Below are positions 14,242 through 24,735 of a stretch of DNA of 64,000 nt, one piece after another. The stretch spans positions 3,872,001-3,936,000 of the forward strand of contig OY969474.1 of assembly GCA_963700145.1 (NCBI GenBank), written 5' to 3'. How positions within the stretch are numbered: the stretch's first letter is position 1; each line of letters opens with the position of its first letter. The DNA is from an uncultured Acidobacteriota bacterium. GTDB taxonomy: Bacteria; Acidobacteriota; Thermoanaerobaculia; Multivoradales; UBA5704. The position numbers and the translations under genes are program-made. A model generated the notes under the pieces. It was not told where the DNA came from, searched no databases, and was given only the letters and a program-made list of their open reading frames with translations.

Positions 14242-14378
14242 ATGTCTCCTCTTCCTGCTCGAGCCTGCAACGCCGATGCCTTCGGGCGACACGGTCTTTT
14301 AGCCCTGTGGCACTATGCGAGTGCGGGCGCCCCGCGCCGCTCCGGGCCGGGCTCCGACCCGACGGAGGGATGAATCCC

Positions 14379-14699
14379 ATGAAAGCTTTGCGGAAAGCGG
14401 CCCTCGGGCTGGCGGTGGTGGCGTGTCTGCTGGCGGTGGCCCCGGCCGCCTGGGCAGGGGCGATAGATACGTCGGCGCGGACGGACGCGGGCGGCTGGAT
14501 CGCTGGGTGGGTCGAGCGGATCGCCCGCTGGATGAGCTGGACCGATCAGCCGGGGCCTGGTGAGGGTGACGCTGGCCGGGTGCGGCCGGTGTTCGAGCAC
14601 GACAACTGCGGTATCGACCCCAACGGCGCGCCGAAGCCTTGCCCGCCGGGGATGGGTCCCGAGCCACCCGAGGGCTCCGGTGGCCCGTTGGGAGGCTGA
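14379..14699 (+). CDS. Small secreted protein/peptide precursor with C-GIDPNG-APKP-C motif
   Basis: RBS GGAGG; signal peptide ending AWA; Trp-rich amphipathic segment; Cys pair around GIDPNG; alternative start 14370. Confidence 0.7.
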   Translation: MKALRKAALGLAVVACLLAVAPAAWAGAIDTSARTDAGGWIAGWVERIARWMSWTDQPGPGEGDAGRVRPVFEHDNCGIDPNGAPKPCPPGMGPEPPEGSGGPLGG

Positions 14700-14742
14700 T
14701 CGCCGACGAGCGGACGCGCGATTCCGTATAAAATTGCTACCA

Positions 14743-16074
14743 GTGGACAACGAGCGCGAGCACTCGATTCCCGCCGACGTGCTGGCCCGCTTCGCAGCCG
14801 GCCTTGCGTCGCCCGAGGAGAGCCGCCTCGTCGCTCGCCACCTTTTCGCCGGCTGCGCCATCTGCATCCAGACTCTCTCCCTCGCCGCCTTCCCCGCAAG
14901 GAGCGGCGAGGGTCCCCCGCCAGCCGGCGCCTACGATCAGGCCTTCGCGGCCGTCGACCGTGACGTGGCCGCCGAGCTGAAGCGCCGCCACCTTCCGGCG
15001 CAGAAGCTGCTCGCCGAGCTCGATCGCCTGCCCACCGAGCGGCAAGAGCTCAAGGTCCGGAACGGCACGCGCTACGCCTCGCTGGAGCTGTCCGCGGCCT
15101 ACGTCGAGCGCAGCAACGAGGTGCGCTACCGGAACCCTGCCGAGATGCTCCGGTTCGCGCGCGTAGCGGTCGCCGCAGCGGAGGCTGCAGCTCGCGTAGG
15201 GTTGGAGCCCCGCTCGCTAGTCAATGACGCTCTGGCTCATGCCTGGGGGCAGGTGGCTAACGCACACAGAGTCCGAAGCGAGGTTCCTGAGGCAGGGCGC
15301 GCCTTTGTCCGGGGGGAGGAGTTTCTGCGAGCGGGCACGGGCGAAGCGACCCTTCGCGCGTGGTTTCTTGAGAAGAAGGCCTCCTACTATCGTCAGCGCC
15401 GCGATTTCCGAGCCGCGATGGAGCTTCTGGAAGAAGCAGTTCGTCTGCATTCGCGCTTACACGATCGCAGGGCAGAAGGTCGCGCTCTAATCAGCTTGGC
15501 CCTCGTGACTATCGTTAGTGGCCAGCCTGAAGCAGCTATCGCCCCCCTACAACGCTGTATTCCGATGTTCACCGGCCGGCCACATGACTTGGACCTCCTC
15601 TGGGCTGCAACGCAAAACCTGGTCTTCTGCTTCGTCGAGCTCGGTCAGCCTGCTCACGCCTACGACCTGCTCGCTTTCGCCGAGCCGCAGTTCAAGGAGT
15701 GCTCCGATGAGCTGGTCCACCTTCGCGTGGATTGGGTCAAGGGCAAGATCGAGAGAGAGCTCGGACTCTATGGCGCGGCGCAATTCCGGTTCGAGCTCGT
15801 GAGGGATGAATACCTACGCAGAGATTTGACCGCCGAGGTCGGGGCTGTCTCCCTCGATCTGGCTGAGGTCTACGCTCACCAAGGGCTCGCCGCGGAGCTG
15901 ATCCGCACCGTGGCTGACACGATCCCTCTCTTCCAGTCGCTCGGCGTGGGGCGCGAGCTGATCGCCGCGCTCCTGAAGCTCCAGGAGATCGCCCGCTCGC
16001 AGCAAGCCGCCGTCGCGCTGCTGCGCGAGGTGGCGAAGCAGTTCCAGGAAGACCTGCCGCAGCTCAGCCGTTAG
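14743..16074 (+). CDS. TPR-repeat protein with N-terminal zinc-finger-like motif (HLFAGCAIC)
   Basis: GTG 14743 after TAAAAT; H-x4-C-x2-C resembles anti-sigma zinc fingers; helical TPR-like repeats (AWGQVANAHR, AMELLEEA, EGRALISLA). Confidence 0.75.
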   Translation: MDNEREHSIPADVLARFAAGLASPEESRLVARHLFAGCAICIQTLSLAAFPARSGEGPPPAGAYDQAFAAVDRDVAAELKRRHLPAQKLLAELDRLPTERQELKVRNGTRYASLELSAAYVERSNEVRYRNPAEMLRFARVAVAAAEAAARVGLEPRSLVNDALAHAWGQVANAHRVRSEVPEAGRAFVRGEEFLRAGTGEATLRAWFLEKKASYYRQRRDFRAAMELLEEAVRLHSRLHDRRAEGRALISLALVTIVSGQPEAAIAPLQRCIPMFTGRPHDLDLLWAATQNLVFCFVELGQPAHAYDLLAFAEPQFKECSDELVHLRVDWVKGKIERELGLYGAAQFRFELVRDEYLRRDLTAEVGAVSLDLAEVYAHQGLAAELIRTVADTIPLFQSLGVGRELIAALLKLQEIARSQQAAVALLREVAKQFQEDLPQLSR

Positions 16075-16501
16075 GCAGCGGCGGCACTTCGGGCATCTCG
16101 CGGTCGAGCTCCGCGAAGAGGCGCTCGATCTCCTCGTCGCTGAAGATCCCCTTCTCCTTCAGTCTCCAGATCAGCACGCGGAGGCTCGCGTGCCGCACGA
16201 GGCGCGCGCTGAGCGGGTACGCCGGGTGGGGCGGCGCGGCCGCGGGCTTGCCGCGCACGTCGGGCGGGCCGTAGACCTCCTCGAAGAACTCCACCGGCGA
16301 GACGTCGAGCGCCGCGAGGATGCCGGCGATGTGCACGTAGCGCAGCTCGATCGCGCCGCTGAACACTTGCCGCAGGTAGTCGTGCCGCCGGCCGATGAGG
16401 AGCCCGACCTCGCGGAGCGACATGCGCTTGCGGCGGATGATCTCGCGCAACGCCGTTCGCACCCGAATCATTTCGGCGTCGGCCTGTTGGCTGAGATCCA
16501 C
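16064..16501 (-). CDS. XRE/Cro-like helix-turn-helix regulator
   Basis: LREIIRRKRMSLREVGLLIGRRHDYLRQVFSG...ILAALDVSPVEFF. Confidence 0.75.
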   Translation of the reverse strand: MDLSQQADAEMIRVRTALREIIRRKRMSLREVGLLIGRRHDYLRQVFSGAIELRYVHIAGILAALDVSPVEFFEEVYGPPDVRGKPAAAPPHPAYPLSARLVRHASLRVLIWRLKEKGIFSDEEIERLFAELDREMPEVPPLPNG

Positions 16502-16507
16502 GCCGGG

Positions 16508-16535
16508 ATTGTACCTCTAGTGTTGCGTTAGTCAA
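16508..16535 (-). promoter_or_regulatory. Sigma70-type promoter for the HTH gene (leaderless)
   Basis: TTGACT (16535-16530), 16 bp, TACAAT (16513-16508), 6 bp, then GTG start at 16501. Confidence 0.65.
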
Positions 16536-16621
16536 CAACAGTTCCGCTAGGTGGCACGTTGACATGTGGTCGATAGCTGTGCTGTCATCCACTTCGTGCC
16601 GAGCCTTTACACCTCTCTGCA

Positions 16622-17401
16622 GTGGCATCTACGCCGTTGGCCCACCTGAGCCACTTCGATGCGCTCTTCCTGCTCGCGCCGCTGCCGCGGGCCGAGCGGC
16701 GGCAGCTTGCGCACGCTCTGGTCTGCGATTCCTGCCGCGCGGTCCTCCGCGAAGTCCTCGCGGCCCAAACGCCTGCCGCCTCGCCTGAGACTCCCGCCTC
16801 CCGCCGTTCCCGCCCTCTCGACTACAGCGCCATGTGGACCGCCCTCGAGAAGAAGCTCGCGGCCGAGGTGCCGGAGATCTTCCGCGAGCGCGAAGCCGCC
16901 CAGCGCGAGCTGGAGAAGCTCCTGCGCCTGCGGCGAGACCAGCGCGCCGCCGTCGCGCGCCCCTGGCCTCGCTCGCCATCGCCTCCTCGACAAGAGCGCC
17001 GAAGTGACCGCCGCGGACCCGCGCGAAGGCGAGCACCTGGCGCGGCTGGTCATCACGATGGTGGGGAAACTCGACGTCGCGCGCGTGCCGGTGACGCTGC
17101 TCGCCGAGCTGACCAGCCAAGCCTGGGCGCTCGTCGGCAACGCGCGGCGGCACCGCCAGGACCTGACGGGCGCCGACTGGGCGTTCCAGCAAGCCCAGGC
17201 CCGCCTCGACCTGGCGACCGACCTCGCCGTCAACGCCACCTCTGCCGCCTCCTCTCCGAGCTCCGCCGCGAGCAGGGCCGCACCGAAGAAGCCCTCGCCC
17301 TCGGCGAACGGGCGCGCGTCCTCTTCACCCAAGTCCACAAGCTCGCCGATTCGACTTCCGGCCCGGGCATTCCGCCCGGTCCCGGTTCACAGGAGACGTG
17401 A
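16622..17401 (+). pseudogene. Second zinc-finger/TPR gene, shorter, with two compensating frameshifts
   Basis: HALVCDSC motif; middle part (SQAWALVGNARRHRQDLTGADWAF) lies in another frame and matches AHAWGQVANAHRVRSEVPEAGRAF of the 14743 protein. Confidence 0.65.
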
Positions 17402-17402
17402 C

Positions 17403-17618
17403 ATGGCCAAGCCCCAGAAACGACCCCCGACCCCCGTCACCGAACACCTGAAGGCCGAACGCATCCAGGTGCTCCTCGCCGGCCTGCCGGAATGGCGCGT
17501 CAGCGCCGTCCAGATCGCCGGCGGCGTCGTCACCCTCACCCTCACCACCGCCAAGACCGCCCGCGGGCTGACGAAGGAGGAGCTGGAGCTCGCGGCGGGC
17601 CTGGAGAAGGTGGCGTAG
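17403..17618 (+). CDS. Small protein resembling an internally deleted pterin-4a-carbinolamine dehydratase fold
   Basis: RBS AGGAG; LKAERIQVLLAGLPEW...VTLTLTT...GLTKEELELAA; central part appears missing. Confidence 0.45.
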   Translation: MAKPQKRPPTPVTEHLKAERIQVLLAGLPEWRVSAVQIAGGVVTLTLTTAKTARGLTKEELELAAGLEKVA

Positions 17619-17633
17619 ATGCTCCGCGGAGGC

Positions 17634-17843
17634 CTGGAGATGTTTTCCCAAGGCTCGGGAATCAATCTCCAGCCGCTCAAGATGCGTCTCCAAGCCCCGG
17701 AGATATATCTCCAGGCCTTGGAGATGGATTCCGAGCCGTTGGGAATCGATCTCCAAGCCCTTGGAATCGATCTCCAACCCCGGAAGATCGATTCCCAGGC
17801 ACCGGAGATCGATCTCCAGCCTCCGGAGATGTATCTCCAGCGC
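17634..17843. repeat. Tandem array of 10 x 21-bp degenerate repeats with palindromic core
   Basis: Units start every 21 bp from 17634; consensus yyGGAGATCGATCTCCArscs; core GGAGATCGATCTCC is self-complementary. Confidence 0.9.
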
Positions 17844-17925
17844 CTCCCAGACGAATTCCCGCCGCGCGGAGTCGGTCTCCGCGCCCACTCTCCACCAACT
17901 TCCGACTCAGACAAGGAGTTTTCCC

Positions 17926-18321
17926 GTGCCAGAGAACTTGGGAGAGAAGCTCAAGACCTGGAGGACCCTCGCGGAGGGCATCAAGCCCCGCCTGGAAGAG
18001 ATCCCTCTGCTCCGGGAGGACCAAGCCGAGCTCGCCGCGCTGGTCCTGGAGATCGACGCCCTCATCGACCGGGGCGATCAGCATGAGGCCCGCCTGCGAG
18101 AAACCAGCCGGAAGCGCACGCAGGCGGAGGCCCGCGCGGCCGAGCTCCATGGCCGCGTGGTCTTCGTGCTGAAGGGCCACTACGGCAAGCGCGCCCTCCT
18201 GCTCCACGAGTTCGGCGTCCAGCCCCACGCCCTACCCGGCCCGAAGAAGGAGGAGACCACGCCCCCCGCTCCGACGCCGGCTCCCGCCTCCCAGGAGCCG
18301 ACCCCCGATTCGGGGGCTTGA
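17926..18321 (+). CDS. Hypothetical helical protein
   Basis: RBS AAGGAG then GTG; coiled-coil-like body ending LKGHYGKRALLLHEFGVQP and a Pro-rich tail. Confidence 0.7.
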   Translation: MPENLGEKLKTWRTLAEGIKPRLEEIPLLREDQAELAALVLEIDALIDRGDQHEARLRETSRKRTQAEARAAELHGRVVFVLKGHYGKRALLLHEFGVQPHALPGPKKEETTPPAPTPAPASQEPTPDSGA

Positions 18322-18336
18322 TCGCGGAACACAACG

Positions 18337-18369
18337 GCCGCCGGCGGAGATCTGACCTCCGCCGGCGGC
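18337..18369. terminator. GC-rich hairpin
   Basis: 13-bp perfect stem GCCGCCGGCGGAG/CTCCGCCGGCGGC, 7-nt loop, no U-tract. Confidence 0.45.
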
Positions 18370-18403
18370 GCACCGCTCTCTCACAACACGGCGCGTCGAA
18401 CGA

Positions 18404-18805
18404 ATGGAGGTTCTCGAATGCCCGCCCCGAAGCAAGAGCCGCCCGCTGCCAGTGGCGTTCCGCGAGACCTTCGCGGCCCTGTTCCCCTACACCCCGCTGC
18501 AGCACAGTTTGGGCAGTCTCTTGGCGAGCTTGGCCGAGTTCGCCGCGTCCCTGCCGGCCTTGGAGCCGCCCGGCGAGGTGACGCAGATGGAGACCGCGCT
18601 GCGCGCCGCCGCCGCCGACCTCCGCTACCTCGAGCGCTTCCTCTCCGCGCTCGGCCGCCAGGCCTCCGACCGGAAGCTCCTCCAGACCGACCGCCAGCTC
18701 GCCCGCGGCGCGGGCCGGCTCGTCGTCCGGCTCGGCGCCGCCGCCCGAGCGATCGACGAGATGGTCGACGCGGCCCAGGCGGCCCGCCGCTCGGAGGCCG
18801 GGTGA
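18404..18805 (+). CDS. Hypothetical helical protein
   Basis: Host-like codon bias, amphipathic helices; start uncertain. Confidence 0.55.
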   Translation: MEVLECPPRSKSRPLPVAFRETFAALFPYTPLQHSLGSLLASLAEFAASLPALEPPGEVTQMETALRAAAADLRYLERFLSALGRQASDRKLLQTDRQLARGAGRLVVRLGAAARAIDEMVDAAQAARRSEAG

Positions 18806-18885
18806 TGGCCCGCGCCGGCGCCCACGTCGCCCTCCAAGCCCGCCTCGCCGCATGCCTCAGCGGCGAGGGCTGAGGAGGTCTCCCC

Positions 18886-19625
18886 ATGGACCGCACGACG
18901 AACGCCGCCCTCCGCCTCCACCGCATCCTCCTCGCCCTGCGCGACGCGAGCCGCGAGGGGCGCCCCATCCGCCAGGTCCTCGCCGAGGTCTTCGAGCTCC
19001 AGCCGGACGACGACCTCGCCCTCCGCCGCCGGCTCCTCGCGGTCGACGACCTCTTCGCCGAGTCCGAGGCCGCGATCCGCTGATCCCGGGCGTCGACCTC
19101 CAGCGCCACCTCCGCCACTTCCCCGCGGCCAGGAAAGCCCTCCTCGGCGCCCGCCTCGACCAGGACTCTCGCCGCTACCCCCCGTTCCAGGAGGCTCTCG
19201 GCGAGGCCGTCTGTAGTCCGTCGAGTTCTGCGGCGCGCGAATCGCCGAGGAGTTCCCCGAGACCGCCCTGGCGACCGACGATCCTGGCCGAGGTCGAGGC
19301 CCGGCTCAACGCCCTCTTCGCCTTCACCGCCAGCGCCGAGCTCGACCCCGCGCTCCGCCAGGTCAGCCTCGACATCCTGCAGACCCTCCGCGCCGCCCTG
19401 ACCGACTACCGCATCCACGGCGCCGCCGGCTTGAAAGAGGCCGTCGAGCAGGCGGTGGGCAAGCTCACCGTCCACTACCTCCGCGCGGAACAGGGCGCCC
19501 GCCTCGACCTCGACCAGCTCGAGCGGCTCCTCGACCTGATCTTCAAGTTCGAGGCGCTGTTGGCCAAGGCGTCCGTCTACCTCCCGGCCCTGACCGAGTA
19601 CCTGCCGAAGCTCCTGGGGGCCTGA
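18886..19625 (+). pseudogene. Hypothetical protein, frameshifted
   Basis: RBS GAGGAGG, ATG 18886; frame stops at 19083 but coding-like sequence (LIPGVDLQRH...LPKLLGA) continues in a shifted frame. Confidence 0.6.
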
Positions 19626-19629
19626 CGCG

Positions 19630-20175
19630 ATGGCCGAGTTGCGCTGGCTCCTGACCAGCCGCACCCTGATCGGCGTCCTCCACACGACCGAAGGCGACAC
19701 CGTGGAGGCGGCTGGCGCACGCTCCGCCAGCAGAACGCCGCCCCCCACTTCATCGCCGGCGAGCACCAGATCGTCCAGTGCCGGCCGCTCAACGTGCAGG
19801 CCTCCACGCTGCGGCCGGGCAGGAACAACACCGCCAACGTCCACGCCCAGATCCAGATCGAGATGGTCGCGCGGAGCCGGCAGGGGTTGTGGCTGCCGAA
19901 GGCCGCGACGCTGGAGCCGACCGTCGCCATCCTGGCCTTCTGCGAGAGACCCTCGGGATTCCCTTGAGAGTGCCGAACGACTGGCCGGACGACTGCTCGG
20001 ACATGCCGCTGCCCTGGCCGCGAACAACCGGCGGCGCAGGCAGGCGCAGCGGGGCTTGTGGCCCAAGGAGAAGGGCTGGTGGATGCACCTGGAGGTGCCC
20101 TACCCGGGGCCGACGTGGCACTGGGACTGCGGGGCGGTGCGGAGGACGAGGCTTCTTGCGCTGGCCAGACAGTAA
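19630..20175 (+). pseudogene. N-acetylmuramoyl-L-alanine amidase-like (phage endolysin type), frameshifted
   Basis: GVLHTTEG, then APHFIAG..IVQCRPL..QIEMV in another frame, then HLEVP..HWDCGA. Confidence 0.65.
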
Positions 20176-20187
20176 ACTTCACAGGCC

Positions 20188-20559
20188 ATGAGCGAACCCA
20201 CGACCACCGCATCCTTCTTGCCATGCCCGTTCTGCGGGACTGATGCAGCGGTCCCCATGGGCAGGGGTGACGCAGGCCAATCCCGATTCTGTCCGTCCTG
20301 CGGCGCAGTTGGCCCGCTCGCGGGCAGTAAGGAAGGAGCGGTTGAGGCCTGGAACCGCCGCGCCTACGGCTGGCACAGCGTGGAGGACCGTCTTCCAGAG
20401 GGCGACGGCGCCGAAGTCGAATACCTTATCTTATTTGGCAGTCGACCTGAGCGCTACTCGCCAGCACTGGAGAGGATGGAGCTTGGTATGACAGCAAGGG
20501 CTTGTTCTGCGGAACGTGACTCATTGCTGGCACTTCCCGCGCTTCCGGCGAGACCTTGA
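20188..20559 (+). CDS. Lar (restriction alleviation)-like zinc-ribbon protein with DUF551-like tail
   Basis: LPCPFCG...CPSCGAVGP...AVEAWNRRA, then WHSVEDRLPE; tail looks frameshifted. Confidence 0.7.
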   Translation: MSEPTTTASFLPCPFCGTDAAVPMGRGDAGQSRFCPSCGAVGPLAGSKEGAVEAWNRRAYGWHSVEDRLPEGDGAEVEYLILFGSRPERYSPALERMELGMTARACSAERDSLLALPALPARP

Positions 20560-20864
20560 CGCCAGACGCCGGGCCAACGCTGCTCTTCCCAGTCGGCCCA
20601 GTTGTGGTAATGACAGGCTTTCCAAAGACCGGTACCTATGCCGGGTGCCCACTTGTCGGAGTATCCACAAAACCGAGTTGTTCGGTCATGGCCAAAGCCG
20701 TCCAAATACTGTATGCGCCCTGGACGAAAAGCAGGGCAACGACATAGTTGGCTCAGCCCACTAGGCTCCCCCTCCCCCTCCCCCCTCCCCGCCCTCCCTC
20801 CCCCCCTTTCTGTCAGTTTTCAGCTACTTGACTCATCAGGTCGCTGGCACCTAGACTTCGGTGC

Positions 20865-22013
20865 ATGCCCCCGCAGTATCCGACTGGCGACGGCACCGCG
20901 GCGCCATCACCAGAGCGTCCCCGTCTGCGGAGATGGCTCAACCCTAACGTTGGCGGGATGGCTCGCCTTGCTCACTGTCCGGGCGTGCGCAGGGCCGTCT
21001 TCTGGCTGTTCCAGCGCGCCCAGGATGCTGAATTCGCTGGCCGGGTCATAGCCGAACAGGTCAGCGAAATGAGTCCAGAGACTCTTGATGCACTTGCTAA
21101 GTGGGCGCCAGTCGTTATCGCCGGTTTTGGTCTTACATGGCTCTGGTTCACAGTTGAGCGCAGCCAGCCCCGAACAAGCATACTGATTGGCGCGGCGGCT
21201 GCGAGAGCGCCAGCGGCCTTGCCGCAGTTACCTGCAGAGCTGCCAAAACTTCGGTTCGCGGTGGATGAGCAGGGCATCAAATGGCTCAGATCATCGCCAC
21301 AGGAACTGAAGCGGTATTTCAACTCGCTGCCACTAGGGATGCGTCAGGGAGCGGCCGATGATCTCGTCGGACTACAGGTGCACTGGAAAGGCAAACTGGC
21401 GGGGGTGCGCGAGGAAGATGGCGAGGCGTCTCTTCAATTGATAGCAGATGAACCTAGCAGTTTCCGTGAAGCGTTCTTTGCGACCGTTCCGCTGTTCGCG
21501 GGCTTGAAGAACTATGCCGAGGGGACGGAGATCGCGGTCGAGGGAACGATTCACGACTTTATGCCGTCGCTAACGACATTTCTAGAGCCAGCGGAGGTTT
21601 CAGGGGGCCGCAGGGGGCCGGCCACGCTTCTACCGACAGAGAAACCGTCGGCAATACAAAGCGGACCACTCACTCCGCGAGAAATAAGTCGACAGGTAGA
21701 ACGAGTGCCGCTGGCGCTCAAAGCAACGGCGGCCAAAGGATTTATTGGAGGGGAGGTAAGCTGGCCGATCATCGTTAAACACATCCGCGATAAGAGACCT
21801 GGCTTCGTCGAAGTCTATGGCGAGGCAGAGGAAGGCGATGGTGTAGGCGTCTTTGCTGAGGTTGAGGCGACTGCCCTTATCGCGCTGCTTGATAGTGGCG
21901 CTCGGCTAACGATTAGGGGTCAACTCGCTGAGCTGTCCGTCCCGATTAGGCTGTCTTGGGTTGTGCTTAGGCCTGCGGTTGTCGAATCCGTAGAAAGCTA
22001 CCGCGGCAAATGA
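20865..22013 (+). CDS. Membrane-anchored hypothetical protein with two repeated OB-fold-like domains
   Basis: Long ORF in AT-richer DNA; TM segment; SPQELKRYF..VGLQVHWKGKL and TPREISRQV..IGGEVSWPIIV repeats; start uncertain. Confidence 0.55.
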   Translation: MPPQYPTGDGTAAPSPERPRLRRWLNPNVGGMARLAHCPGVRRAVFWLFQRAQDAEFAGRVIAEQVSEMSPETLDALAKWAPVVIAGFGLTWLWFTVERSQPRTSILIGAAAARAPAALPQLPAELPKLRFAVDEQGIKWLRSSPQELKRYFNSLPLGMRQGAADDLVGLQVHWKGKLAGVREEDGEASLQLIADEPSSFREAFFATVPLFAGLKNYAEGTEIAVEGTIHDFMPSLTTFLEPAEVSGGRRGPATLLPTEKPSAIQSGPLTPREISRQVERVPLALKATAAKGFIGGEVSWPIIVKHIRDKRPGFVEVYGEAEEGDGVGVFAEVEATALIALLDSGARLTIRGQLAELSVPIRLSWVVLRPAVVESVESYRGK

Positions 22014-22109
22014 CTAAGCCAGTCCTCCACCTCAGAGATAAGCTCGCAGCGCGCGCCGGATGCTCGCGCTCTTGAACGTGCGTTCCTTCTCGGCTTCCGC
22101 GCCAGCGCC

Positions 22110-22300
22110 TCGGCTGCTGTACCGCTCGAATGGTAAGCCGCCCAGCTCGGTCCTCGATCTCGTAACGCTGCCCGCGGTCGAAGCCGACGCGCTGGAGCCA
22201 GCGGCCTGAGATGCGGGTCCCGGGACCAGGTTGCGGTAGCCGCGGCTGCGGCAGCAGATGCGCTCGCGCCGCTCGTCGGGCTCGGGAGCTGGTCAGTTTG
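22110..22300 (-). pseudogene. SymE-family toxin remnant (copy 1)
   Basis: RISGRWLQRVGFDRGQRYEIE..GRLTIRAV; internal deletion relative to copy 2; bounds approximate. Confidence 0.65.
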
Positions 22301-22338
22301 GGGGCGGAAGGCGCGGATCGTGGTGCTAGCATCGCGTC

Positions 22339-22566
22339 ATGCGACTCGTGGAAGCCAGGTATGAGGAGGGTCTACTTAAGCCGACGGAGCCCCTTGCGCT
22401 TCGGCCCGGCGAGCGGGTCGGGCTGATCGTCGTCCGGCGCCCGGACCCGAGCCGGTGGGACCTTCAGCGCCTCGCGACGACCGGGGAGGGAGAGGACCTC
22501 GCGCTGGCGAAGCAGGGCCTTGGAGACTGGGCGGGCGCGCTGGAAGGAGAGGATCGCCTTCGATGA
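22339..22566 (+). CDS. Antitoxin-like protein (DUF104/AF2212 family)
   Basis: VEARYEEGLLKPTEPLALRPGERV. Confidence 0.75.
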   Translation: MRLVEARYEEGLLKPTEPLALRPGERVGLIVVRRPDPSRWDLQRLATTGEGEDLALAKQGLGDWAGALEGEDRLR

Positions 22567-22588
22567 CGGAGCGAGCAAGGAGCGAAAC

Positions 22589-22810
22589 TTGCGCTATACC
22601 GTGATCCTGGAGGAAGGGCGAGAGGGTGGGTTCGTCGCCATCTGCCCTGCCCTGCCGGGCTGTGTAAGCCAAGGCAACAGCAGGCAAGAGGCGCTCGGGA
22701 ACATCCGCGAGGCGGTCGAGGTCTACATCGAAGCGCTGCTCGAAGACGGCCTTCCGGTCCCCGTCGAGGAGGGACGCGAGACGGTCGAGATCGAGGTCTC
22801 GGCGCGTTGA
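22589..22810 (+). CDS. hicB: HicB-family antitoxin
   Basis: RBS AAGGAG, TTG start; YTVILE..GGFVAICPALPGCVSQG.SRQEALGNIREA. Confidence 0.88.
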   Translation: MRYTVILEEGREGGFVAICPALPGCVSQGNSRQEALGNIREAVEVYIEALLEDGLPVPVEEGRETVEIEVSAR

Positions 22811-23031
22811 GCAAGCTTCCCGGGGTCTCTCGGGGCAGCAGGTTCGTCGTGCGCTCGAGCGGGGCCGGCTTTTACTTGAAGCGACAGAAGGGCAGCCACA
22901 TGGTGCTCCGCCGTGACGAGCCTTTCGCCCAGGTCGTCGTTCCCGCACATTCGAGCCTCGATACCGGCATGCTGGCGGCCATCCTCGACGCTGCTGGCTT
23001 GACTGCCGAACAGCTCAGAGAGCTTCTCTGA
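22807..23031 (+). CDS. hicA: HicA-family toxin (N-terminal helix garbled by compensating indels)
   Basis: RQKGSHMVL..VVVPAH..LDTGMLAAILDAAGL; GQQVRRALER lies in a shifted frame. Confidence 0.82.
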   Translation: MSKLPGVSRGSRFVVRSSGAGFYLKRQKGSHMVLRRDEPFAQVVVPAHSSLDTGMLAAILDAAGLTAEQLRELL

Positions 23032-23124
23032 TCAGCCCCGAGCTTCTTCCCGCGCCCCCAAGCCTCGCCTTAGTGCCCCTCCAGCGTGACGAGCGACTTA
23101 TGGGCTGTCCCACGTCCCACAGGA

Positions 23125-23925
23125 TCACGGCTCATAACCCATTGAAACCTGTGATAGTCCAGCAGCAGGGTTAGGCTCTTCCCACGACTCGCCACCGTTC
23201 TTAGTTCGGAAAACCCGGTTATTGGCGCCCACACCCCATGCATTAAGGTCGTCCACACCTGACACTTGATACAAACCTGCATTAGGATTGGGCTCATCCC
23301 AGTGGTCACCATTCGCCGTTTTGAAGACGCGGAGATTGCTCGGGTTCCCGATCCCCCAGGCGCCTTCAACCGTCCATGCATCGATCTGATATAACCTCGC
23401 ATCAGGGTTCGGCTCATCCCATTCATTGGTATTGATATTGAATTTCAGGACATGGTCATCAGACGTAAGACCCCAGATATTGTCGTACTTGCCTACCGAA
23501 ATCTGTTTCAGATGTATCGAGGGAGTGAATGGCAGCCAGCTGGAGCCTCCACTGACCCACTGAAAAATACGACCTTCGGATCCAATACCCCACAGGTCAT
23601 TCCCGTTCAAGTTCGATATCTGATCTAGCCTGGCCCCAGCATTTGGTTCGTCCCATGAGTTGCCGTTCCACCGATAGACCCGCCCATCCGGCCCCAATCC
23701 CCACACGGGCCCCCCTTGTTTACTCACAGAAACCTGCTTCAGTCTTGCATCGGGGTTTGGCTCAGACCAGCTGCTCCCATTCCACCTGTACACACGACCG
23801 TCTGGTCCGACTCCCCAGACAGCTAAGGTCGGTGGAGCCGCACCAGGTCCCATCGTCTGGCAGCCTGCCAGTACCAGAAGAATAAGGCTCAAGCTCCTTA
23901 GGATGCTTATCAAATGTCTCATCAT
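23125..23925 (-). CDS. Tectonin-like beta-propeller lectin, lipoprotein
   Basis: Six WG...W.EPNPxARLxQ(I/V)S repeats; lipobox LAGC; RBS AAGGAG; much lower GC than flanks. Confidence 0.75.
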   Translation of the reverse strand: MMRHLISILRSLSLILLVLAGCQTMGPGAAPPTLAVWGVGPDGRVYRWNGSSWSEPNPDARLKQVSVSKQGGPVWGLGPDGRVYRWNGNSWDEPNAGARLDQISNLNGNDLWGIGSEGRIFQWVSGGSSWLPFTPSIHLKQISVGKYDNIWGLTSDDHVLKFNINTNEWDEPNPDARLYQIDAWTVEGAWGIGNPSNLRVFKTANGDHWDEPNPNAGLYQVSGVDDLNAWGVGANNRVFRTKNGGESWEEPNPAAGLSQVSMGYEP

Positions 23926-24083
23926 TCTCCTTTGGCCATCTTGGGCCGCAGTCCGATCCCCCTAGAGACTCCCCGGTAAGTTGTGTAAGTTAGCAAGGAG
24001 AGGCGATAGAGCGCAAATGCGACGTCTGAGCGCCATGATCGCGGTTTGCGCTGAGCCGGGTTAAGACTTAGCCCGGCGTTCGC

Positions 24084-24434
24084 TTAGACGGCGGTGGGTT
24101 CCGAGCGCCCGGGGGACGGCGCCTCGGCCCGGCGATTGGGCGGGCGGTCGGACGGATCGTTGAGGTCGCCTAAACAGCTAGAAGGTAGGAGAAGCGCCGG
24201 GCCGCCCGGCCGGACCTCGATCTCGTAGTGCTGCCCGCGGTCGAAGCCGGCGCGCTGGAGCCAGCGGCCTGAGATGCGGAGGTCCGGGACCAGATTGCGG
24301 TAGCCCCGCATGCGGCAGCAGATGGTGCCGAGCGGCGGCCTTTCGCGGGCGACCGCGGCGCGGGCGAGCTTGCGCTCGCGCCACTCGTCGGGCTCGGGAA
24401 GCTCGTCGGCTCGAAGCGACCGAGCCGGCTTCAC
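24084..24434 (-). CDS. SymE-family toxin-like protein (copy 2, aberrant C-terminus)
   Basis: VPDLRISGRWLQRAGFDRGQHYEIEV. Confidence 0.65.
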   Translation of the reverse strand: MKPARSLRADELPEPDEWRERKLARAAVARERPPLGTICCRMRGYRNLVPDLRISGRWLQRAGFDRGQHYEIEVRPGGPALLLPSSCLGDLNDPSDRPPNRRAEAPSPGRSEPTAV

Positions 24435-24558
24435 GCCACGCTACGAGTCTGACTCCTTATGTCTGAGTTGCGAGTCAAGAGCGCACCGTGCCTCGGCCAG
24501 GGTGAGGGAAAGCCCTGTGATTCTTCGTTCCCATCCTCGAACCCAAGAGGAGGCTCCA

Positions 24559-24735
24559 ATGGCACGCACGCAATGCTGGAATTGTAGTGGCACCGGCAAA
24601 GTCGACTGCTATTACTGCAAAGGAAAAGGCGGAGACCACGACTCCGAGGGTACGTGGCAGCAGTGCGCTTATTGTTATGGCAGCGGAAAGGGTACGTGCC
24701 ACAAGTGCGCGGGGAATGGCTTCGTCGAAGAATGA
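24559..24735 (+). CDS. Stand-alone DnaJ-type zinc-finger miniprotein (58 aa)
   Basis: RBS GAGGAGG; four CxxCxGxG repeats. Confidence 0.8.
   Translation: MARTQCWNCSGTGKVDCYYCKGKGGDHDSEGTWQQCAYCYGSGKGTCHKCAGNGFVEE

Follow-up and report, generated by a model that had tools for sequence, protein, structure and literature searches.

A lineage-specific two-gene module in Thermoanaerobaculia: a candidate anti-sigma-like TPR sensor and its putative cognate peptide

Described systems with related components

Intracellular receptors with tetratricopeptide repeats (TPR) for exported peptides are known from Firmicutes, and sigma factors of the extracytoplasmic function (ECF) type are usually under membrane anti-sigma control. 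The DNA analysed here is a stretch of 64,000 nucleotides (the window), located at positions 3,872,001-3,936,000 of a genome that consists of a single contig (5.46 Mb, 69.5% G+C). The homologues of the window came from metagenome-assembled genomes (MAGs) of Thermoanaerobaculia (Acidobacteriota), a lineage outside the Firmicutes, as a preliminary description of the locus had proposed. Positions 14288-16074 of the window contained a gene for a small peptide, predicted to be exported, and a gene for a zinc-finger/TPR protein. This region is one copy of a lineage-specific two-gene module; in the reading that we tentatively favor, an anti-sigma-like TPR sensor, together with a cognate exported peptide, would feed an ECF-type sigma factor.

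The RRNPP systems (Rap-Phr, NprR-NprX, PlcR-PapR, and AimR-AimP) are defined in PMC10075063 by a gene for an intracellular TPR protein that is adjacent to one for a pro-peptide of the Sec type. The locus resembled these systems in the two adjacent genes for a predicted pro-peptide and an intracellular TPR protein, in the conserved motif at or near the C-terminus of the pro-peptide, in the many paralogous pairs per genome, and in a TPR fold near those of RapI, RapH, and NprR (Z 19-22), although LGN was nearer (24.7). Unlike in the RRNPP systems, the peptide gene was located upstream and its product was 84-131 aa long with a Cys loop, the putative effector was anti-sigma-like instead of a helix-turn-helix (HTH) or the three-helix bundle of Rap, the host was a diderm acidobacterium, and generic TPR families were matched with no family-specific sequence match. 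Typical RRNPP pro-peptides are shorter than the 106 aa of the peptide in the window. The analogy to RRNPP is best regarded as one of logic and not of family membership.

The zinc class I anti-sigma factors (ChrR-SigE of Rhodobacter sphaeroides, DdvA-DdvS of Myxococcus xanthus, and RsrA-SigR) were similar to the TPR protein in other respects. The N-terminal three-helix region with its His/Cys-x2-Cys motif aligned to ChrR and DdvA, and TPR paralogues were translationally coupled to an ECF-type sigma gene. ChrR and RsrA are soluble, as is the TPR protein of the window by its sequence. In contrast to these factors, the TPR family carried the motif H-x4-C-x2-C with the first ligand His in an H-P motif, its sensor would be a TPR superhelix of ~330 residues, most of its copies, including that of the window, followed a gene for an exported peptide without an adjacent sigma gene, and it was present at 14 to >40 copies per genome. 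The TPR class II chaperones of type III secretion (IpgC-MxiE and SicA-InvF) couple substrate export to transcription, and like the locus they combine, within a single circuit, a TPR protein of the cytoplasm with a partner that is exported and a component that acts in transcription. The differences were that export in the module would be by Sec, that the TPR protein has an anti-sigma-like domain of its own, and that no genes for a secretion apparatus were adjacent.

The literature search, which included passages of PMC7826278 and PMC9765709 and did not cover the possibly relevant supplementary tables of ECF groups, returned no description of this peptide/TPR pairing. The components (ECF sigma factor, zinc anti-sigma domain, TPR sensor, and Sec pro-peptide) are of known kinds; their combination and scale appear to be new.

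The peptide/TPR gene pair

The peptide gene and the TPR gene formed a conserved pair whose linkage, seen in paralogues as well as in other genera and families, greatly exceeded chance, and the codon comparisons indicated purifying selection on both. Analysis of the genome revealed ~14 full-length TPR paralogues, and a peptide gene was located beside 13 of the 14, directly in 11 cases and in the order peptide-sigma-TPR in two; the exception was the paralogue at 3,645,691. This count comprised 11 peptides detected by a sequence profile, one from a scan for sequence features, and one read upstream of a sigma gene. All 11 open reading frames (ORFs) that the peptide profile detected in the genome at E≤0.01 were within 1 kb of a TPR-family gene. 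The feature scan yielded 243 small signal-like ORFs, 13 of which carried the peptide motif; nine of these were adjacent to a TPR gene and the other four looked spurious. In other genomes, an upstream peptide was detected automatically for 23 of 45 TPR genes in the best-hit loci, and inspection of the same loci by eye added ~3 more peptides and placed nine TPR genes second in a TPR tandem, ~7 after a sigma gene, and ~3 in other arrangements. A less biased sample came from a genome of another genus (G006), in which the hits in regions covering 36 of 43 matches were merged into 35 TPR genes. The peptide gene was upstream on the same strand in eight of these, divergent in four, and part of a peptide-sigma-TPR arrangement in one; a further gene had only the sigma gene, six were second in a tandem, and no peptide was detected for 15, which showed that the linkage was strong but not universal. 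The identities of the peptides and of the TPR proteins were correlated (Mantel r = 0.656, reached by 0 of 2000 permutations), a co-divergence that plain co-inheritance would also produce. The preliminary description had placed the TPR gene directly after the peptide gene and had suggested that their co-occurrence and co-variation be followed with models of both proteins. The pair proved to be conserved here and in further genera and families, linkage was seen in other genomes (23/45, and 13/35 in G006), and the co-variation was present as given above.

The TPR family was matched at E≤1e-5 in 38 of the 41 genomes of relatives, the genome of the window included, with 906 matches reported, and the counts in genomes of the same taxonomic family reached at least 41 copies. 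In a sample of 301 genomes from the phylum, with the best five candidates per genome scored, matches at E≤1e-15 were present in five genomes, all from the order of the window, whereas the other orders of this sample yielded none. The TPR family was found only in one order of Thermoanaerobaculia.

The peptide gene started with the ATG at 14379, with GGAGG 9 nt upstream, and its product began with a segment rich in K and R, followed by a hydrophobic core and an A-x-A site (ending in A-W-A), from which export by a Sec-type signal is predicted. In the part after the signal, an amphipathic helix rich in Trp was joined by a Gly/Pro linker to a Cys loop with the sequence I-D-P-N-G, and the mature peptides of the family would be ~60-80 aa long. 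The region belongs to a repeated block, described below, of which the window holds copy A; comparison of the peptide gene with that of copy B gave a dN/dS of 0.36 (19 non-synonymous and 17 synonymous differences). The peptides beside the other TPR paralogues of this genome likewise showed the K/R start, the hydrophobic core, A-x-A, the Trp-rich amphipathic helix, a Gly/Ser/Pro linker, and [IVLM]-D-P-x-G, which was often within C...C and often formed the very C-terminus. A profile built from 21 family members matched 760 cluster representatives at E≤1e-3, and 133 at E≤1e-10, in 1.84 billion proteins. The relatives were 84-131 aa long in all 150 representatives listed, with an end-to-end match in most, and the twelve representatives inspected had the same build as the peptide of the window. 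The secreted precursor of ~106 aa in the preliminary description was therefore upheld as a real gene, given its signal-peptide build, its dN/dS, and its profile relatives. The peptide had no Pfam or NCBIfam family, and all the clusters that a protein atlas search matched to it (scores 0.90-0.91) were unnamed ones from Acidobacteriota, at a recognition level lower than is usually required. As a separate observation, a TPR subfamily of G006 with a divergent N-terminus had its peptide gene on the opposite strand, and these peptides carried two or three D-P-x-G motifs.

The TPR gene started with GTG, as in a database protein of 99% identity, and a TTG at 14734 was a possible alternative. The protein comprised a finger region (residues 1-50, with H33, C38, and C41), a linker, and a TPR superhelix at residues ~110-440, and its sequence, with neither a signal nor a membrane segment, indicated a soluble cytoplasmic protein. 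In the predicted structure, which was a confident one (pTM 0.74), three short N-terminal helices were followed by a disordered segment at residues 51-58 and ~19 helices. The structures closest to the TPR part were superhelices that bind peptides, namely LGN (Z 24.7), Pins (23.7), RapI (22.4), RapH (20.2), a phage Rap (20.0), NprR (19.1), and PlcR (15.8), and the E-values of Foldseek were 1.6e-7 for LGN and 1.4e-5 for a Rap protein. TPR_12 was the sole Pfam family type in the protein of the window, below threshold (28.8 bits against a cut-off of 30.1). The 56 family members analysed matched TPR families, with TPR_12 in 56 of 56; no HTH family was matched in the TPR protein or appeared among the best 25 of the 67 Pfam families found over these members.

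The metal motif in the protein of the window and in nearly all family members was H-x4-C-x2-C, not the classical H-x3-C-x2-C, and the conserved N-terminus read H-P...L..FL...(~15-20 residues)...R-H-L-L-x-G-C-x-x-C. Residues C38 and C41 were invariant in both family alignments; H33 was invariant in the N-terminal alignment and conserved at ≥90% in the full-length one. When the N-terminal family profile was compared with the PDB, the three best matches were all to anti-sigma factors, one to DdvA (E 0.0035) and two to ChrR (E 0.0047 and 0.0052), with alignments that spanned the H/C-x2-C, and the sub-noise rows of a fold search that covered residues 6-79 included ChrR, RsiW, RslA, and MucA. The preliminary description was thus right about an N-terminal finger of the H..CxxC type resembling anti-sigma domains, but the spacing was not its HxxxCxxC. 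The likeliest reading of the TPR protein is a soluble anti-sigma-like TPR sensor.

Codons ~151-300 of the TPR gene (window positions 15199-15650) had a third-position G+C content (GC3) of ~0.62, against 0.86 in the flanks, and in the comparison with copy B the dS of this segment was saturated whereas that of the flanks was 0.15-0.5. This pattern suggests that the middle segment, which lies in the repeats that would form a ligand groove, was recombined or is much older. Diversifying selection on the TPR gene was considered and rejected, since saturated dS points to an older or recombined segment and not to fast evolution.

Sigma factor link, promoter motif, and readings of the module

The TPR paralogues at 797,828 and 795,427 started at the stop codon of a 177-aa sigma gene. 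The gene upstream of two paralogues here and of several elsewhere passed Sigma70_r2 (35.5-41.5 bits against a cut-off of 24), with overlapping stop and start codons. This ECF-type sigma factor was exceptionally well conserved, with identities of 80-100% among 80 MAG loci that bore the labels Thermoanaerobaculia, Holophagales, or Acidobacteriota, and the genome contained four paralogues and a fragment (one at 799152-799682), all away from the window. A TPR homologue directly followed the sigma gene in 59 of the 77 loci with enough flank (Thermoanaerobaculia MAGs), and 2 of the 14 TPR paralogues in the genome were adjacent to a sigma gene. Both TPR-coupled sigma genes here were preceded by a peptide gene, as were the sigma genes of 11 of the 77 loci elsewhere, and another sigma paralogue was divergent from a peptide-TPR pair (2,755,393).

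A bipartite motif, GTC[AC]CG, N15-16, [GAC]CAC, was found upstream of the peptide genes. It was present in 10 (strict form) or 14 (loose form) of 23 upstream regions, against 0.002 and 0.0105 expected per scanned interval, the pattern having been derived from some of these 23 sequences. Among loci fetched later, all 11 sigma loci with a peptide had the strict form, as did only 1 of the 58 sigma loci that lacked one. The sigma genes had their own promoter between the peptide and sigma genes, TGGACA-N17-TAnCCT, which was sigma-70-like; by its sequence, the peptide promoter motif was not, and the ECF-type sigma factor may be what reads it. A scan of the whole genome with the strict form produced 144 hits, most of which were noise given the high G+C content, and no regulon was readable from them. 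A sigma-54 promoter upstream of the peptide was rejected by eye for its misfit in GG/GC spacing.

We infer from these arrangements a working scheme in which the TPR protein would bind and hold an ECF-type sigma factor of the conserved family (four paralogues here, encoded elsewhere). The TPR domain would act as the sensor, with the cognate peptide as its ligand, either whole or processed to a fragment that retains the D-P-x-G end. The peptide genes would be read from the shared non-sigma-70-like promoter, probably served by that same ECF-type sigma factor, so that a feedback loop would be formed, and the dozens of paralogous peptide/TPR pairs would be parallel input channels.

Several observations weigh against this scheme. 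The most serious concerns topology: in this diderm host the predicted route of the peptide is out of the cytoplasm and the TPR protein has no export signal, so that sensing would need re-import of the peptide or its capture before export. The D-P-x-G core is common to all paralogues, which fits one-to-one specificity poorly unless the x position or the flanks discriminate. A peptide gene was present at only 11 of the 77 sigma loci, none was detected for 15 of the 35 TPR genes in G006, and the window's own TPR copy had no adjacent sigma gene. As for the promoter, only the sigma loci fetched later were independent of the pattern. The anti-sigma likeness was also qualified: the TPR protein of the window had no Pfam zf-HC2 match, zf-HC2 was absent from the best 25 of the 67 Pfam families among the 56 members (the 25th matched three), the metal motif had an extra residue relative to the classical zinc anti-sigma motif, the E-values of the profile matches to the PDB (~0.004) were marginal, and the fold search with residues 1-105 gave nothing significant (E≥2.3, Z≤4.7, below noise). 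In the predicted structure, the likeness of the TPR part to Rap and NprR was no better than that to eukaryotic LGN and hence is generic. The co-divergence measured by the Mantel test reflects co-inheritance, not binding.

The topology problem would not arise if the peptide were no more than an exported product under common regulation, such as an amphipathic peptide with antimicrobial or envelope activity, and the TPR protein were a dedicated regulator or anti-sigma factor that senses another signal, the two never meeting. This is possible, if doubtful. The mature peptide is long (~60-80 aa), and its Trp-rich amphipathic helix and disulfide loop form a build that is common in membrane-active peptides; the single promoter type common to all peptide genes is as expected in one regulon, and the 15 TPR genes of G006 with no detectable peptide would also fit. 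However, one-to-one pairing and co-divergence over dozens of paralogues would be hard to explain with interchangeable regulators, and the peptide also precedes sigma-TPR pairs. Pairing would be kept, and topology solved with no importer, if the TPR protein captured the un-exported precursor in the cytoplasm, much as the TPR chaperones of type III secretion do with their substrates, and export then freed or engaged the anti-sigma domain. Extended or C-terminal peptides are common ligands of TPR proteins, and D-P-x-G is often the very C-terminus. Such secretion-coupled sensing is nonetheless unlikely: Sec substrates normally leave fast, and there would be no obvious reason for 14 to >40 parallel copies.

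The preliminary description had proposed an RRNPP-type quorum switch with output through an anti-sigma-like finger or the adjacent, convergent XRE-like gene. The first route agrees with the anti-sigma-like finger domain and the coupling of paralogues to an ECF-type sigma gene, whereas the second is very improbable. In its favor, the XRE gene overlaps the 3' end of the TPR gene by 11 bp, an XRE homologue was beside the TPR orthologue in three of four loci of the same genus, and five of the seven XRE paralogues in the genome were within 300 nt of a TPR-family match. However, no XRE homologue was found beside TPR genes in 25 loci of other genera, and one XRE copy (~215 kb) was accompanied by an array and a helical gene with no TPR gene. 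Between copies A and B of the block, the amino-acid identity was 98.6% for the XRE protein, 96% for the short finger protein, 83% for the peptide, and 73% for the TPR protein; the XRE gene, nearly unchanged where the TPR gene has diverged, therefore travels with the neighboring block and not with the pair. Least probable of all is a translation-arrest leader that monitors Sec (as SecM, VemP, or MifM) and controls downstream translation. The small upstream ORF with its signal peptide and its conserved proline-containing motif at or near the end would suit such a role, but it occurs in dozens of copies per genome, and the genes that it precedes belong to a regulator family and not to secretion. 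In addition, between 17 and 210 nt separate the peptide stop from the following start, the peptide and TPR genes are in places divergent, and the sigma gene has a sigma-70-like promoter of its own after the peptide gene.

If the favored reading, an anti-sigma-like TPR sensor with a cognate exported peptide, is correct, its presence at tens of copies would join the signalling logics of RRNPP and of ECF sigma factors in an abundant, uncultured soil lineage, and a testable function would be offered for >700 clusters of hypothetical small proteins and a large TPR family. A wider extension, which we consider more speculative and rather doubtful, is that Thermoanaerobaculia communicate through dozens of Cys-loop D-P-x-G peptides, each with its own TPR receptor, whose anti-sigma outputs converge on a few ECF-type sigma factors that drive the peptide promoters; this would be peptide communication of a kind undescribed in diderm bacteria. 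The conserved sigma factor, the defined promoter motif, and the short, synthesisable peptide motifs provide experimental handles.

The repeated block and other features of the window

Genes in 14379-18805 were called from the G+C content at codon positions together with an ORF listing. All the features that the preliminary description had listed were found where it had placed them, with some details corrected (Table 1).

Table 1. Features of the peptide/TPR locus and the repeated block in the window
Feature	Position	Strand	Evidence or remark
Promoter-like bipartite motif, degenerate form of GTC[AC]CG-N16-GCAC	14288..14313	+	Read by eye, loose pattern match; at the left edge of the repeated block
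Peptide gene, 106 aa	14379..14699	+	Signal peptide; dN/dS 0.36; profile match E 4e-26
Zinc-finger/TPR gene, 443 aa	14743..16074	+	TPR_12 sub-threshold; predicted structure pLDDT 88.1
XRE-like helix-turn-helix gene, 145 aa	16064..16501	-	Weak PHROG match; HTH_3 match of the copy C paralogue
Sigma-70-like promoter, TTGACT-16 nt-TACAAT, 10/12 matches	16508..16535	-	Directly upstream of the XRE start
Short finger/TPR paralogue, 259 aa, frameshifted	16622..17401	+	Comparison with copies B and C
PCD-like ORF, 71 aa	17403..17618	+	Partial, sub-threshold Pterin_4a match
Palindrome array, 21-bp period	~17636..17881		Tandem Repeats Finder and by eye
Helical gene 1, 131 aa	17926..18321	+	GC3 0.88; paralogues elsewhere in the genome
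G+C-rich hairpin, 15-bp stem	18337..18369		Between helical genes 1 and 2
Helical gene 2, 133 aa	18404..18805	+	GC3 0.94; copies in blocks B and C
Decayed tail of the repeated block	18806..20175	+	Comparison with copy C

The repeated block extended from 14282 to ~20170 (~6 kb) and was present in the genome as three fuller and two partial copies with mosaic identity: copy A in the window, copy B at 3,384,129-3,390,220, copy C at 3,110,327-3,103,465, and the partial copies D and E. In the intact copy C, the peptide and TPR genes were followed by the XRE gene on the opposite strand, the short finger gene (274 aa), the PCD-like gene, the array, helical gene 1, helical gene 2, and genes of 315, 247, and 204 aa, in this order. 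In the tail of the copy in the window, only a short stub was left of the 315-aa gene, and the counterparts of the other two genes (247 and 204 aa) were frameshifted or truncated. The XRE gene, the short finger gene, the PCD-like ORF, the array, and the helical genes thus form a separate multi-copy block, decayed in the window, that is not part of the core of the module and accompanies the peptide/TPR pair only in the genus of the window. The cassette of the preliminary description, in which all of these acted as one system, was accordingly not borne out. No integrase was seen in the block, and no notable direct or inverted repeats were found within either of its end regions, each scanned separately. 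Neither Pfam nor NCBIfam had a family for the helical proteins or the other genes of the block, and PHROGs gave no match to the copy C homologues of the block genes except for the XRE-like gene.

The XRE gene, convergent with the TPR gene, was the first gene of the conserved core of the block, and its dN/dS between copies A and B was 0.05. The XRE protein of the window had no Pfam match at E≤0.1 and matched PHROG 2439 weakly (E 3e-4), but the paralogue in copy C, 36% identical, passed HTH_3 (27.0 bits against a cut-off of 23); the assignment as an HTH regulator, made in the preliminary description, thus depends on the paralogue together with the weak PHROG match. The search for promoters of this gene found one sigma-70-like sequence, against a mean of 0.1 in shuffles.

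The short finger gene had the classical H-x3-C-x2-C motif and was a real paralogue of the zinc-finger/TPR gene, as the preliminary description had stated, but it was frameshifted in the window. Alignment with copy B revealed 1-bp deletions (two gap columns in 16849-16996 and one in 17147-17295), two of which were seen directly at ~16965 and ~17243, and these put ~90 codons out of frame. The genes of copies B and C were in a single frame throughout, with ORFs of 260 and 274 aa, and the version in the window is probably a pseudogene or an assembly error. The ORF of the small PCD-like protein was also present, but its resemblance to Pterin_4a was partial and below threshold (residues 37-69, E 0.0057, 17.2 bits against a cut-off of 26), and its scores with the NCBIfam equivalog models (12.9-17.4 bits) did not pass the cut-offs of 80-146. 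Helical gene 1, directly downstream of the array, had 14 tblastn matches in the genome, its own copy included, and helical gene 2 was 94% identical to its copy in block B and 84% to that in block C. The hairpin between them had a perfect stem and a 92%-identical copy at ~3,433,000.

The phased 21-bp palindromic array noted in the preliminary description was confirmed as one of ~92 in the genome. Tandem Repeats Finder gave ~9 copies with a 21-bp period, whereas reading by eye gave ~12 units, each a 14-bp palindrome resembling GGAGAT-NN-ATCTCC, and the array ended ~45 nt before the start of helical gene 1. Blocks B, C, and D had an array at the same place with a different palindrome. Across the genome, 92-99 regions of 150-640 bp showed strict 21-bp periodicity, mostly outside ORFs of high GC3, and 12,720 scanned positions passed at lag 21 compared with 120-170 at lags 22 and 23. 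A consensus palindrome at ≥12 of 14 positions was found in 34 arrays, with 30 distinct cores, and 26 of the 34 were outside high-GC3 ORFs. A relative of helical gene 1 was near 12 of the 92 arrays and a relative of the PCD-like ORF near 10; the 3' end of the PCD-like ORF abutted the array here and likewise at several others. Among the block copies, the C-terminal half of the PCD-like protein, the array, and helical gene 1 varied together. The XRE gene was nearly identical in copies A and B though their arrays differed, which makes it unlikely to set the specificity of the array. The array may most likely be an operator-like or centromere-like protein-binding array before helical gene 1. The 21-bp arrays matched no known family, and spurious G+C-rich ORFs obscured any grouping when the ORFs near the arrays were clustered.

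The Rfam scan of the window found only an rRNA operon and tRNAs, none of them in the 14379-18805 region; the operon, at 43539-48712, was an ordinary one with 16S, tRNA-Ile, tRNA-Ala, 23S, and 5S. An accessory stretch of lower G+C content at 20188-24735 encoded a zinc ribbon of the Lar-like restriction-alleviation type, which scored 37.5 bits in Pfam (cut-off 28.6), and a HicB/HicA-like pair, two SymE/AbrB-like ORFs, a small antitoxin-like ORF, a repeat lipoprotein, and a CxxCxGxG zinc-finger ORF were recognized in it by eye. Several of these accessory genes recurred near other copies of the repeated block.

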